Notes: a model not told the origin generated them from the sequence alone. A stretch of 64,000 bases of DNA from Escherichia coli (GCF_013122565.1 NZ_CP053258.1); one strand, 5' to 3'; counted from the stretch's first letter, positions 3,001 to 9,000 are shown. Numbers and translations are program-made.

Positions 3001-6000
3001 CGTTAGCGCCGCGCCTTTTTCGGCGGCGTTAATCACATCATCAGGGGTAATAGCGTTAATGCTGATGGCAACGGTAGTGAGATCAACAGTCAGCGGATGG
3101 GTAATGCTGGTTTGCGTTCCGGCACTGTTCGCGCCGCTAACGGTAATATTCAGCGTTCCCGCAGGCCAGTTACTGACATCCGTCGCCGGAACGCCGACGC
3201 TCCAGCTACCGTTCGCCAGCACCGTGGCGGCGTAAGTTTGATTATTTATCACCACGGTCAGCGCTGTACCTGCCGCAAAGCCGGTGCTGCTGCCGGTGAT
3301 CACCTGCGCCTGACTGTGTTCGATGATATTGACCACATCATCACCCGCGACGGTATCCACCCGCAGGCCAGGCAGACTGGCATCGATGGTGATATCGCGC
3401 GTGCCGCTGCCGGTGTTGCCAACGGCGTTGGTTACCGAGGCGTTAACTGTTAACTCACCGTTACCCAGCGCCTGCCAGTCGGCGGCAGGTACGCTCACAT
3501 ACCAGCTTAAATCAGCCTGGACGGTGGCGGTGTAAGTTTTACCGCCCAGTTCAACGGTGACGGTGCTCCCCGCCGCCGCACCGGTTACCTGGCCGCTGAT
3601 AGTTTGCGCGCTGCCTGCCTCTGAAGCGTTGATAATATCGTCCGTCGCCACCGGATTAATGGTGACGCCCGGCAGCGCGGTATTAACCTGCACGTTATGG
3701 CTGGCGGTGCTGCTGTTACCCTGAGCATTGGTGACGCTCGCCGTGACGCTATATGTCGCTTCGCCCAGCGCACTGACCGCCGAGGCGGGCACGGTTACGC
3801 TCCAGTTGCCGGAGGCATCCGTGGTGGCGCTGTAGTTTTGTCCGTTCAGCGTAACGGTGATCGCCGTACCCGCAGGCTGATCGCTGGTGCCGGAAAGCGC
3901 CAGATCGGATCCTTTTTCCGTCGCGTTGATCACGTCATCGCCCGCGATGGTGTTGATGCTAATCACTGGCGCGCTGAGGCTGACGGTCACGGTGCGGCTA
4001 GCGTCGTCGCTGTTGCGTGCCCGATCGCTGACGCTGGCGGTAATGGTCTGTGCGCCGCTACCGAGTGCCGTAACATCCGCCGCCGGAACGCCAACGCTCC
4101 AGTTGCCGGAGGCATCCAGGGTGGTGGTGTAGGTTTTGCCGTTAAGCACAACGCTCACCACATCGCCCGCTTCCCCGCCGGTGCTGGTGCCGGAGATCAC
4201 CAGCGCCTGGGCGTGTTCGGCGTCGTTGATGATGTCATCGCCCGCCACGGTGTTAATGGTGAGAACCGGCGCGGTGGTGTCTACCGCCAGATTATGGCTG
4301 GCGCTGCCGGGGTTGCCCGCTTTGTCGTTGACCGTAGCGCTGACGGTGTAATTGCTTGCACTCAGCGCGTCCAGGGCTGAGATGGGAACGCTGATGCTCC
4401 AGCTGCCGTCCGCCTGTACAGTGCCGGTGTAGGTTGCGCCGTTGAGGGTGACGGTCACCGCCTGCCCGGTTTCGGCGGTGCTGGTGCCGCTGATGGTGAG
4501 CGGATTTCCCGCCTCTGTGGCGTTAAGAATGTCATCGCTGGCGATGGTGTTAATGGTGAGCGTCGGTGCGCTGGCGTCAACGCTATACGCATGGGTCGCC
4601 GAGGCACTGTTACCGCTCGCGCTGCTGACGCTGGCCTGCACATTCGCTGCGCCGTCTGGCAGAGTTGCCAGATCTGCCGCCGGTACCGTTACGCTCCAGC
4701 TTCCGTTGGCGGCGACGCTTGCGGTGTAGGTTTTGCCGCCAAAGGTGACGGTAACGGTTTGCCCGCTTTCAATCCCGCTGGTGCTGCCGGAAATGATCAG
4801 GTCGGTGCCTTTTTCGGCGGCGTTAATTACGTCGTCGCTGGCAACGGTGTTGATGCTGATCGCCACCGCCGTTAAATCGACAGTGAACGGATGGCTGACG
4901 CTGACCGGATTTCCGGCTGTAGTGTTGCCGCTCGCCGTAATGGTGACCGTCCCCGCAGGCCAGGCGCTGACATCTGCCGCCGGAATACCGACGCTCCAGG
5001 TGCTATCCGCCAGTACCGCCGCAACATAGGTTTGTCCGTTAATGGTCAGCGTGACGTTGCTGCCCGCAGCCAGATCGGAGCTGCTGCCGGTAATCACCAG
5101 CGCCTGATCGTGCTCGATAATGTTGACCACATCATCGCCCGCCACGGTGTCAATCCGCAGACCGGGGAGATTCGCGTCTATGGTGATTTCACGCGTGCCG
5201 TTACCGGTATTGCCTACGCTGTTTGTTACCGAAGCCGAAATGGTCAGTTCACCGTTGCCCAGCGCCTGTAACGCGGAGGCCGGAACATCGACGCTCCAGC
5301 TTAAATTCGCCTGCACCGTGGCAGTGTAAGTCGCCCCGCCGAGCGTGACGGTTACCGTGTCGCCTGCCGCCGCGCCCGTCACCTGCCCACTGATGGTCTG
5401 GCCCGCCCCTGCTTCGGCGGCGTTGATAATATCGTCGCCCGCCACGGTGCTGATGGTGACGCCCGGCAGACCGCTGTCGACCAGTAAATTCGCCTGGCTG
5501 CTGGCGGTGTTGCCTGCCGCACTGGTGGCGCTGACGCTGACCGTATAGTTGGCCTGGCCTAAAGCCGCCAGATCGCTCACCGGCACGGTTAAGGTCCAGT
5601 TGCCTGCTGCGTCGGTGGTAGCGCTATAGTTGTGACCGTTGAGCGTGACGGTGACCTGCGCGCCCGTCGCCAGCCCCGTACTGTTACCGCTAATGGTCAA
5701 CGGCTGGCCTTTTTCATCGGCGTTCAGGACGTTATCGCCGCTGATAGAGTTAAAGGTAATGGTCGGCAGCCCGGTATTGACCGTCACCTGATGGGTGGTG
5801 CTGCCGCTGTTTCCTCCGGCATCAGTGACGCTGGCGTTGATGGTCACCGTGCCGTTCGCCAGTGCCGAGACGACGCTTGCCGGAACGCCGACGCTCCAGT
5901 TGCCGCTGGCATCCAGCACCGTGGTGAAAGTATTTGTGCCGATAGTCACCGTCACGGTGCTACCAGTTGCCGCACCCGTGGCGGATCCGCTGATGATCTG

Positions 6001-9000
6001 TGCCTGGGTGTGTTCCGTCGCGTTGATCACATCATCGCCTGCCACCGTGTTGATGGTGACGACCGGAACAGAAGTATCCACCGTCAGGTTGTGATTAACC
6101 GAGGCCGGGTTTCCGGCTTTGTCGCTCACCGCCGCGTTCACGGTGTAGTTGCTGGCGGTCAGGGCGCTTAAGTCGGCTGGCGGCACGCTGACGCTCCAGC
6201 TGCCGTCCGTTTGAACCGTGCCGGTATAGTTTGTGCCATTGAGGGTGACGGTCACCGTCTGCCCCGCTTCCGCCGTGCTGCTGCCAGTGATGGTCAGCGC
6301 AGCTCCGGCTTCGGCGGCGTTAAGAATGTCGTCGCCCGCAATGGTGTTAATGGTCACCGTTGGCGCGCTGGCATCGACGCTGTATGCGTGGGTAGTGGTG
6401 GCGCTGTTGCCGTTAACATTGCTGACGCTGGCCTGTGCGCTGGCATCGCCATCACGCAGGGCCGCCATATCTGCCGCCGGAACCGAGGTGCTCCAGGAAC
6501 CATTCGCCGCCACCGTGGCGCTGTAAGTTTTGCCGCCAAAGGTGACGGTGACCGTTTGTCCGGCTTCGACGCCAGAGGTGCTGCCGGAGAGCGTTAACGC
6601 CGCGCCTTTTTCAGCGGCGTTAATCACATCATCGACGGTAATGGCGTTGATGCTGACCGCCACCGCCGTGAGATCGACAGTCACCGGATGCGTAACGCTC
6701 ACCGGGTTTCCGGCGGTGGTGTTGCCGCTCGCCGTAATTGTGACCTTCCCCGCAGGCCAGGCGCTGACATCTGCCGCCGGAACGCCGACGCTCCATGAGC
6801 CATCCGCCAGCACCGCCGCAACATACGTTTGCCCGTTTATGGTCAGCGTGACGTTGCTGCCCGCTGCCAGATCGGAGCTGCTGCCGGTAATCACCAGCGC
6901 CTGATTGTGCTCGATAATGTTGACCACGTCATCGCCCGCCACGGTGTCGACCCGCAGACCAGGGAGATTCGCGTCGATGGTGATTTCACGCGTGCCGTTA
7001 CCGGTATTGCCTACGCTGTTCGTTACCGAAGCCGAAATGGTCAGCTCGCCGTTGCCCAGCGCCTGTAACGCCGGGGCCGGAACATCGACGCTCCAGCTTA
7101 AATTCGCCTGCACCGTAGCAGTGTAAGTCGCCCCGCCGAGCGTGACGGTCACCGTGTCGCCTGCCGCCGCACCCGTCACCTGCCCACTGATGGTCTGGCC
7201 CGCGCCCGCTTCGGCGGCGTTAATAATATCGTCGCTCGCCACCACGTTAATGGTGACGCCCGGCAGCGCGGTATTGACCTGCACATTATGGCTGGCGGAA
7301 CCGCTGTTGCCATCGGTGTCAGTGGCGGCGGCAGTCACCGTATAAGTGGCTTCACCGAGGGCGCTGACCCGTGACGCCGGAACGGTTACGCTCCAGTTCC
7401 CGGATGCATCGGCAGTGGTGGTGTAATTTTGCCCGTTGAGCGTGATGGTAATCTGCGTACCCGCGGGCTGGTTGCTGGTGCCGGTAATCGCCAGATCTGC
7501 ACCTTTCTCCGTGGCGTTGATGATGTCGTCGACGGCAATGGTGTTAATGCTGAGTATCGGCGCGCCGAGCGCCACGGTGACAGTGTGCGAGGCCGTGCCG
7601 CTGTTGCCTGCGGAGTCGGTAACCGTGGCGGTAATGGTCACATCGCCCTGCGCCAGCGCGGAAATGACGCTGGCAGGCACGCCGATGCTCCAGTTGCCGT
7701 TGGCGTCCAGCACGGTGGTATACGTGTTGCTGCCAATGGTCACGGAAACCGTGTTACCGGTCGTCGCGCCCGTTGCCGAGCCGCTGATAATCTGCGCCTG
7801 TCCGTGTTCAGTAGCGTTGATGATGTCATCGCCCGCTACCGTGTTAATGGTGACGACCGGAGCAACGAGATCTACCGTCAGGTTATGCGTTGCCGAAGCC
7901 GGGTTACCGGCTTTGTCGCTGACCGAGGCGTTAACGGTATACGAGCTGGCGGTAAGGTTAGCTAAATCCCCGGTCGGGACGCTGACGCTCCAGCTTCCGT
8001 CTGCCTGCACGTTACCGCTGTAATTGACGCCGTTAAGCGTCACGGTCACCGTCTGCCCGGCTTCTGCCGTGCTGGTGCCGCTGATGGTCAGCGCCGAATC
8101 CGCTTCGTTGGCATTGAGAATATCGTCGCTGGCGATGGTGTTGATGGTGACAGAGGGCGCAGTGGCATCGACGGTATAAGCATGTGTTGCCTGGGCGATG
8201 TTGCCTGCGACGTTGCTGACGCTGGCCTGGACGTTTGCTGCGCCGTCCGGCAAGGTTGCGAGATCGGCGGCTGGGATCGTTAGCCCCCAGGTGCCGCCCG
8301 TGGCAACCGTGGTGGTGTAGCTTTTGCCGCCGAAGATAACGGTGATGGTCTGCCCCACTTCCACGCCGGAGGTGGTGCCGGAAAGCTGCAAATCAGAGCC
8401 TTTTTCAGCGGCGTTAATTACATCGTCAGTGGAAAGGGTGTTGATGGTAATCGCCACGGCCGCGAGATCGACCGTGACCGGATGGCTAATGCTGGTTGTG
8501 GTTCCGGCGGTGTTGGTGCCTGAAACAGCAATATTGACCGTCCCCGCAGGCCAGTTACCCACGTCCGCCGCCGAAACGCCGACGCTCCAGGTGCCATCGG
8601 CGAGGACCGTTGCGCCATAGGTGACGCCGTTGATAACCACCGTCAACGCCGCCCCCGCCACCAGTCCGCTACTGCTACCGGTAACCACCAGCGCCTGAGT
8701 GTGCTCAATGCTGTTAATCACATCATCGCCTGCCACGGTATCGACGCGCAGACCAGGCAGGTTGGCGTCTATTACGATGTCGTGCGTTGCGGTGCCAGTA
8801 TTATTTGCGGAATTGGTCACCGAGGCGCTGATGGTCAGTTCACCGTTGCCCAGCGCCTGCAAAACGTTCGCCGGTACGCTGACGCTCCAGCTTAAATCTG
8901 GCTGTACGGTGGCGGTGTATTGATTGCCGCCAATGGTGACAATCACCGTATTCCCGGCAACCGCCGTTCCCGTGACCTGACCGCTGATGGTCTGCGCCAC

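Follow-up and report, generated by a model that had tools for sequence, protein, structure and literature searches.

The SiiEA adhesin and comparable repeat proteins

Giant non-fimbrial adhesins made of tandem Ca2+-binding immunoglobulin (Ig) domains are known from Salmonella, where they include SiiE, with 53 BIg domains and the SPI4 type I secretion system, and BapA (PMC6272769, PMC5466336). In Escherichia coli, ECUMN_0527 of strain UMN026 is SiiEA, annotated as 'adhesin for cattle intestine colonization' (PMC3256949); the literature that we found mentions SiiEA at the level of annotation only, and no paper on the evolution of the siiEA repeats was found. Here we analyze siiEA in a stretch of 64,000 nucleotides (nt) from E. 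coli (GCF_013122565.1, NZ_CP053258.1; the whole stretch is called the window), which holds most of the gene on its minus strand. Within the repeat array of this gene, a segment of the sixth super-repeat (SR6) is occupied by sequence of the type found in the neighboring fifth super-repeat (SR5), very probably as a result of gene conversion. The likeness of the two blocks had been noticed in an earlier reading made from the sequence without database searches (the sequence-only reading), which proposed recent duplication or gene conversion as its origin, and warned that repeat copies might have been collapsed in the assembly.

Like other E. coli members of the SiiEA family (NF047714), the window allele combines a BapA prefix with tandem Ca2+-stabilized Ig-like repeats at the same chromosomal position; it differs from them in its private SR6 tract, which we take to be a conversion, and in being at most 94.4% identical to the alleles of complete genomes. 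With SiiE and BapA of Salmonella it shares the repeat type and dedicated type I secretion, as well as a BapA-type N-terminal prefix, but it is a different gene at a different locus, and the six-type super-repeat was measured for the window SiiEA only. Intragenic recombination and gene conversion in bacterial antigens have been reviewed (PMC4534519), and for cagY of Helicobacter pylori intragenic recombination between in-frame repeats is described, with rearrangements that are reported to be frequent and tied to function (PMC2194252). As in cagY, in-frame variants of siiEA arise by recombination between direct repeats, with both replacement of sequence and gain or loss of whole repeats. The window siiEA differs, however, in carrying one apparently old 0.5-kb tract and small patches, and there is no evidence of a programmed or high-rate switch in siiEA.

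Periscope proteins, whose defining feature is tandem repeats of high identity (Whelan et al. 2021, PMC8201768), are likewise surface proteins with a long stalk of Ig-like domains in tandem, and they vary in domain number, as siiEA alleles do (by minus one, minus six and minus 11 domains). In SiiEA, however, adjacent domains share only about 43% of their amino acids (aa), in-register copies about 72% of their nucleotides, and no exact repeat within the gene exceeds 44 nt. We therefore rejected SiiEA as a Periscope protein, given that its neighboring domains are diverged even though domain number varies; its architecture follows the rule that neighboring domains are diverged. Titin, a eukaryotic muscle protein of another domain family and another period, has higher-order super-repeats of Ig and Fn3 domains, and resembles SiiEA in that each domain is nearest to one a whole super-repeat away, although this is an analogy of architecture only.

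The window SiiEA comprises about 52 Ig-like domains of about 100 aa, 42 of which form seven super-repeats of six domains each (types 1 to 6). Domain starts carry a nearly invariant GDDxxNxxE-coding motif. Amino acid identity between domains is 43% at a lag of one to five domains and about 72% at lags of six and 12, while whole super-repeat copies are 67-77% identical in DNA. Tandem Repeats Finder, run over 1-20 kb, found nothing, as the copies have diverged too far and their period is above 500. The gene and its super-repeats are as follows, with the basis of the assignment in brackets:

1..17376, minus strand: siiEA, N-terminal 5,792 codons (stop-free frame, NCBIfam adhesin_SiiEA, RefSeq siiEA at colinear loci)
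2149..14727, minus strand: super-repeat array SR1-SR7 (repeat spacing of 1794-1803 nt, segmentation, identity matrix, Pfam Big_13)
12925-14727, minus strand: SR1
11131-12924, minus strand: SR2
9334-11130, minus strand: SR3
7537-9333, minus strand: SR4
5740-7536, minus strand: SR5
3946-5739, minus strand: SR6
2149-3945, minus strand: SR7

Replacement of SR6 sequence by SR5-type sequence

SR5 and SR6 repeat at an offset of 1797 nt, and at this offset the block at 5122-5328 is identical to that at 6919-7125 in 196 of 207 nt (94.7%), with 2 of 69 aa differing, exactly the protein difference that the sequence-only reading had counted. For 5032-5271 and 6829-7068, the values are 95.0% and 2 of 80 aa. 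The same reading had described the cassettes at about 3.3 kb and 8.7 kb as more diverged, and this holds: compared with the same block, they are about 75% identical in nucleotides, and 13-14 of 69 aa differ. It had also matched 4891..5271 with 6829..7068; the near-identity was reproduced, but these segments are of unequal length, and the true partner of 4891-5271 is 6688-7068 (92.7% identical nucleotides, 7 of 127 aa differing). In a pairwise matrix of the cassettes by domain, SR5 and SR6 stand out with 94.7% identity for type 2 and 90.4% for type 3, compared with 62-75% for their four other types, and with 66-86% for the type-2 and type-3 domains of all other pairs.

The permutation test on polymorphic columns, in the style of GENECONV and with 2000 permutations, likewise singled out this pair: a fragment of 543 nt, in which SR5 and SR6 share 244 of 277 polymorphic sites, scored 163 against a null maximum of 39 (p < 0.0005). 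Over 486 nt the two copies are 94.4% identical and over 530 nt 93.6%, a level that falls to 74% and 57% in the 300-nt flanks. The tract is thus about 94% rather than about 100% identical to the resident SR5, with 27 differences in 486 nt. Synonymous sites show the same pattern: the proportion of synonymous differences (pS) between SR5 and SR6 is 0.149 in the tract, compared with 0.45-0.65 for the 20 other super-repeat pairs in the same columns, and with 0.555 for SR5 and SR6 outside the tract.

Which of the two copies had changed was evident from nine siiEA alleles of complete genomes (L001-L009). Seven of these retain both blocks. In six of the seven (L002, L003, L004, L006, L007 and L008), identity between SR5 and SR6 in the critical stretch stays at the background level of 64-80%, and L001 has the same unconverted pattern. 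Compared with SR6 of those six alleles, the SR6 of the window is 69-83% identical in the stretch and 88-98% identical in its flanks, whereas SR5 of the window is 89-97% identical to their SR5 throughout. When set against SR5 alleles instead, the SR6 stretch of the window is 91-95% identical. In the alignment, 365 diagnostic sites separate SR5 from SR6 across the six other alleles, and between alignment columns 338 and 823 the SR6 of the window has the SR5 state at 68 of 74 such sites; of the remaining six, four have neither state and two have the SR6 state, one of them with a base that is also present in SR5 of the window. In all alleles the best matches of the tract lie at the SR5 position, with the orthologous SR6 positions not among the top matches listed. 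Finally, in a neighbor-joining tree of 48 two-domain blocks, with the nine alleles included, each super-repeat position forms a clade across strains, and the sole misplaced block is SR6 of the window, which is nested in the SR5 clade. SR6 of the window thus holds SR5-type sequence in place of its own, with the following borders:

minimal 4919-5404, maximal 4896-5424, minus strand: acceptor tract in SR6, of SR5-type sequence (diagnostic-site switches, allele identities)
6692/6716-7201/7221, minus strand: resident SR5 counterpart of the donor sequence (offset of 1797 from the tract; orthologous, at 90-97%, to other SR5)
5396..5454, minus strand: upstream junction of the tract, 5' in gene sense (alignment; GDDIINAAE-coding motif at the start of the type-2 domain)

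The acceptor tract covers the type-2 domain and about three quarters of the type-3 domain of SR6. Sites 4895 and 5425 are the nearest flanking positions that are still of SR6 type, and the downstream border lies inside a short stretch common to both types.

The replaced form was found in the window alone. Of 5,426 complete E. coli genomes searched, 959 carry siiEA, and 947 of these have a single copy of the native SR6 sequence; the converted tract was found in 0 of 957. Its best match there is 93.6% identical over 598 nt, and in the one top match examined for position (PE164, L001) it sits at the SR5 position. A query spanning the junction reached at most 89.8% identity at full coverage in the same genomes. 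The 59-mer at the junction (5396-5454) occurs in the window only among nine alleles compared, the window included, and as an exact sequence it is absent from the GTDB representative genomes and from the JGI metagenome contigs. A protein query of 300 aa across the junction gave a best full-length match of 84% identity, and its matches were mostly short fragments.

Origin, donor and age of the tract

The window gene aligns over 17,376 nt as one colinear piece to 17,376 nt of the L002 allele from a closed genome. Considering that domain number and length thus equal those of L002, and that native SR6 sequence was replaced rather than supplemented, the event was gene conversion or an equivalent double crossover and not a duplication. 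We hold it very likely that the near-identical block is a gene-conversion tract in siiEA, in which SR5-type sequence has replaced native SR6 sequence. In the lineage of the window, homologous recombination would have paired SR6 with SR5-type sequence one super-repeat (1,797 nt) out of register, and about 490-530 nt would have been copied non-reciprocally into SR6. The type-2 domain and most of the type-3 domain of SR6 would have been swapped for their SR5-type equivalents in this way, with domain number, register and frame left intact. The recombination itself may have been a RecA-type strand exchange or a double crossover, and as donor both the resident SR5 and an SR5 brought in on DNA of another strain are conceivable.

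Of the two origins that the sequence-only reading had offered, gene conversion is strongly backed by the orthologous alleles. Its other proposal, a recent tandem duplication of the two-domain block or of a whole super-repeat whose flanks diverged later, would explain why the highest identity in the array is found between these two neighboring super-repeat copies, but we consider it most improbable: domain count and length match those of alleles in which the two blocks are not alike, the sequence on either side of the tract has its orthologs (88-98%) in the SR6 flanks of other strains, native SR6 sequence is absent instead of retained, and the tree places the origin of all seven super-repeat positions before the divergence of the alleles. 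Selective constraint or convergence could in principle keep two domain pairs alike without transfer of DNA, and the ratio of non-synonymous to synonymous divergence (dN/dS) is indeed low (0.11), with type-2 domains being the best conserved type overall. However, the homogenization extends to synonymous sites, at the pS values given above, which excludes convergence; in addition, the orthologous SR6 of other strains is unlike SR5, and the borders of the tract are sharp, so that we attach practically no weight to this explanation.

An assembly artefact would take the form of a chimeric path by which SR5-type reads of this or a co-occurring strain came to stand at SR6, or of copies that were collapsed or mis-ordered. 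The converted allele was indeed found in no other assembly, and draft assemblies often break in siiEA, leaving fragments on contigs of about 1-1.6 kb. Nevertheless, the 27 differences in 486 nt mean that the tract is not a misplaced copy of the window's own SR5, and a chimera would need joins at junctions that share just about 14-20 nt, less than the k-mer sizes usual in genome assembly, in a gene whose longest exact repeat is 44 nt. The frame is intact over 5,792 codons, and the tract is under purifying selection as is the rest of siiEA. The array also runs colinear with closed genomes, and its length is that of one of them (L002). Overall, an artefact appears improbable. Collapse of copies in the window, and with it a copy number other than the one seen, is unlikely for the same reasons, namely the shortness of the longest repeat, the 27 differing sites, the intact frame and the colinearity with closed genomes, and here the warning of the sequence-only reading did not hold.

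While these alternatives compete with gene conversion, the source of the donor divides it into sub-variants. A fragment of siiEA from another strain, carrying SR5, may have arrived by horizontal transfer and recombined one super-repeat out of register into SR6, which would give the same product from a donor never resident in the genome; we regard such an import as possible, though somewhat doubtful. In its favor, the tract is about as far from one SR5 allele as from another, with SR5 of L001 slightly nearer than the resident one; its synonymous divergence (dS) equals that between alleles; and the divergence of siiEA alleles far exceeds that of the flanking genes, in keeping with frequent exchange of alleles. 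On the other hand, no foreign donor was identified, the best of 957 genomes reaching only the 93.6% over 598 nt mentioned above, and the long private branch of the window lineage (98.2% in the core) leaves time for 5.6% of divergence within the genome.

Gene conversion, for its part, has several observations against it. The SR5 alleles of L001, the window itself and L002 are 95.3%, 94.4% and 93.4% identical to the tract, with none closer than 95.3%, and the sites shared exclusively with the tract number one for the resident SR5 and three for L001, in a pattern that is reticulate and uninformative. Given these near-equal distances and site counts, an intragenomic donor is not demonstrated. In the tree, the tract nests in an SR5 sub-clade formed by the window, L001 and L002, and is not specifically sister to the resident SR5. 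Furthermore, no other assembly was found to carry the converted allele and so to confirm the tract independently, and the uninterrupted identity at its borders (about 14-20 nt) is short for RecA-dependent initiation, although the end points of a conversion need not mark where pairing began.

As to the age of the conversion, the tract differs from the resident SR5 by 20 synonymous and seven non-synonymous changes among 483 sites (dS 0.175, dN/dS 0.11), and whole siiEA alleles differ from one another to the same extent (dS 0.18, dN/dS 0.12-0.13). The event is therefore not recent on the gene's own clock, contrary to the recency that the sequence-only reading had suggested. Judged by this divergence, the conversion would be old, and the tract would since have drifted about 5.6% apart from the resident SR5, mostly at synonymous sites and under purifying selection.

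The window lineage itself stands apart from the complete genomes compared. Its core stretch at 24000-44000 (from the end of copA through dnaX into mscK) is 98.2% identical to the best of the 5,426 genomes, and the stretch with the TolC-like gene, ybaT and glsA is at best 98.8% identical to complete RefSeq E. coli, so the source lineage is not represented among the 5,426 complete genomes, and may be a divergent E. coli clade or Shigella.

The conversion tract is a new example of a known process in a known gene, and leaves the understanding of such adhesins, or of gene conversion, unchanged. It does provide an example, anchored in population data, of a giant adhesin gene that changes by non-reciprocal in-register replacement and by whole-domain deletions, whereas overall each copy in the array evolves on its own, and it shows a repeat region that can be trusted as assembled. 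In practice, typing and alignment of siiEA must allow for paralogous patches: when compared with its ortholog alone, the tract would look like an 'allele' that is 25% divergent.

Short patches, copy number and the siiEA locus

The fragment ranked second in the permutation test, after that of SR5 and SR6, joins SR1 and SR2 over 341 nt (score 82, null maximum 42):

12929..13269, minus strand: SR1 type-6 domain region with raised identity to SR2 (permutation test, allele comparison)
11135..11475, minus strand: SR2 partner of this second homogenized block (permutation test, allele comparison)

The sequence-only reading had described this pair as less alike, with about 10 differences in 81 residues; the lesser likeness is real (87.2% identical nucleotides between 11074-11316 and 12868-13110), but the actual count is eight of 81. 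In every allele the type-6 domains of SR1 and SR2 have 85-93% identity, suggesting an old homogenization common to all of them. Within this region, only the window, L005 and L009 resemble the paralog in a patch of about 90 nt (12934-13024), while L004 and L008 have another patch further along.

Similar patches seem to be scattered through the array. Clusters of private variants number 8-12 in each of four colinear alleles, and some of these clusters fit a single paralog (for example at 9 of 11, 7 of 8 and 12 of 18 sites). When private variants were pooled over SR1-SR7 of the window (2149-14727) and the colinear parts of L001-L003, 630 of them had the base of an in-register paralog, compared with 517 expected (z 10.5), and at four-fold degenerate sites 334 did so, compared with 290 expected (z 5.3). 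This excess is suggestive of frequent short-patch conversion, although it is partly confounded by shared constraint and codon bias. The sequence-only reading had seen ongoing concerted evolution in this mosaic. Sporadic, polymorphic patches lend that idea some weak backing, but copies cluster by position and not by genome: paralogs within a genome are not closer than orthologs between genomes, and just one tract departs from this rule. Patches of conversion in siiEA are sporadic, measure roughly 20-500 nt and vary from strain to strain, and the array as a whole is not homogenized.

The dS of 0.18 between siiEA alleles exceeds that of adjacent genes by a factor of 2-9 when the same strains are compared (0.02-0.05 for ybaT and 0.07-0.11 for the TolC-like gene). 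Either the alleles predate the chromosome around them, or strains exchange them, or changes templated by paralogs inflate their divergence. One speculation, to which we give only limited credence, is that the six-type array serves as its own template library, with frequent in-register patches between its seven copies creating mosaic siiEA alleles. Such a library would explain a dS of 2-9 times that of neighboring genes, and would in effect be a cassette-like system, contained within the gene, for diversifying a surface adhesin.

The array holds a deeper mosaic as well. Its type-6 domains split into two subfamilies (SR1, SR2, SR3 and SR6 versus SR4, SR5 and SR7) with 56-66% identity between the groups, and the type-1 domains of SR4 and SR6 are just 60-67% identical to the remaining type-1 copies. 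Taken together, this indicates that the array did not arise from simple serial duplication followed by uniform divergence.

Copy number was compared with related genomes as well, and its variants among strains always come in whole-domain steps. In other strains siiEA is often damaged or of altered size. The allele of O157:H7 is shorter by 300 nt (domain 24), and that of GPEC1337 (L009) by 300 nt, or one domain, at the boundary of type 2 and type 3 in SR6, a site independent of that in O157:H7. WP2-W18-ESBL-10 and SB0258h1 (L004 and L008) lack 1800 nt, the equivalent of one super-repeat, through an in-register fusion of the type-5 domains of SR3 and SR4, and MS 21-1 (L005) lacks 3294 nt (11 domains) and has an internal stop as well. 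Two alleles of the O157:H7 type (L006 and L007) have an internal stop at codon 1462 and one domain fewer, and siiEA of PE164 is interrupted by an IS4 insertion. The window, equal to L002 in this comparison, has the common full-length form of the array; in a spread sample of genomes, spans of 17,394-17,406 nt predominate.

A great many E. coli and Enterobacter entries of this adhesin family consist of partial proteins from contigs about 1-1.6 kb long, in clusters of at most 176 members, which suggests that short-read assemblies commonly fragment within these genes. For siiEA in general, the warning about assemblies applies as one of fragmentation and not of collapse: draft fragments and true copy-number variants exist elsewhere, though not in this window.

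Concerning the identity of the gene, a frame without stops runs on the minus strand through 1-17406 of the window, with a likely ATG start at 17376. The window's N-terminal residues 1-234 match NCBIfam NF047714 (BapA-related adhesin SiiEA) with 502.5 bits (cut-off 425), residues 5-69 match the BapA prefix-like domain NF033677 with 71.1 bits (cut-off 35), and the first 990 aa match Ca_tandemer (NF033510) with 672 bits. In the 1,197 aa of SR5 and SR6 together, Pfam Big_13 gave 13 matches, nine of them at E <= 0.001. By these domain matches the gene is assigned as SiiEA, a BapA-related giant adhesin predicted to be secreted by a type I system and to carry Ca2+-stabilized Ig-like repeats. It is colinear with annotated siiEA genes at 93-94% identity, and at most 94.4% identical to any of the 959 complete-genome alleles. 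The gene runs past the start of the window, so that its C-terminal 3.4 kb lie outside; orthologs are 18,975-20,790 nt long.

Directly upstream of siiEA lies a gene for part of its secretion system:

17479..18834, minus strand: TolC-family outer-membrane component of the siiEA type I secretion system (TIGR01844, 417.6 bits; RefSeq orthologous loci agree)

The flanks of the window match E. coli chromosomes (the TolC-like gene, ybaT, glsA and copA). In complete genomes, the order of the locus is the TolC-like gene, siiEA, a type I secretion ABC permease/ATPase, an HlyD adaptor and cueR. Each intact orthologous locus that was retrieved carries the ABC and HlyD genes; in the window strain these would lie beyond the start of the window.

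On the plus strand, 21 open reading frames (ORFs) of 102-278 aa lie inside siiEA at 523-17427, for example 8920-9756 and 4891-5271. These antisense ORFs repeat with the frame of the adhesin and are most likely by-products of repetitive, G+C-rich coding sequence. The ORF at 4891-5271, which had supplied a coordinate to the sequence-only reading, was rejected as a gene, being one of many antisense ORFs in siiEA. A stop-free frame of 535 aa at 35360-36964 (plus strand) runs antisense to htpG at 35405-37282 (minus strand); it had no NCBIfam match, while the minus-strand frame there matches HtpG with 862 bits.

The G+C content of siiEA (1-16000 of the window) is 59-62%, compared with mostly 45-56% over 18000-64000. 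The gene is thus a compositional island, consistent with its occurrence in only 959 of the 5,426 complete genomes.

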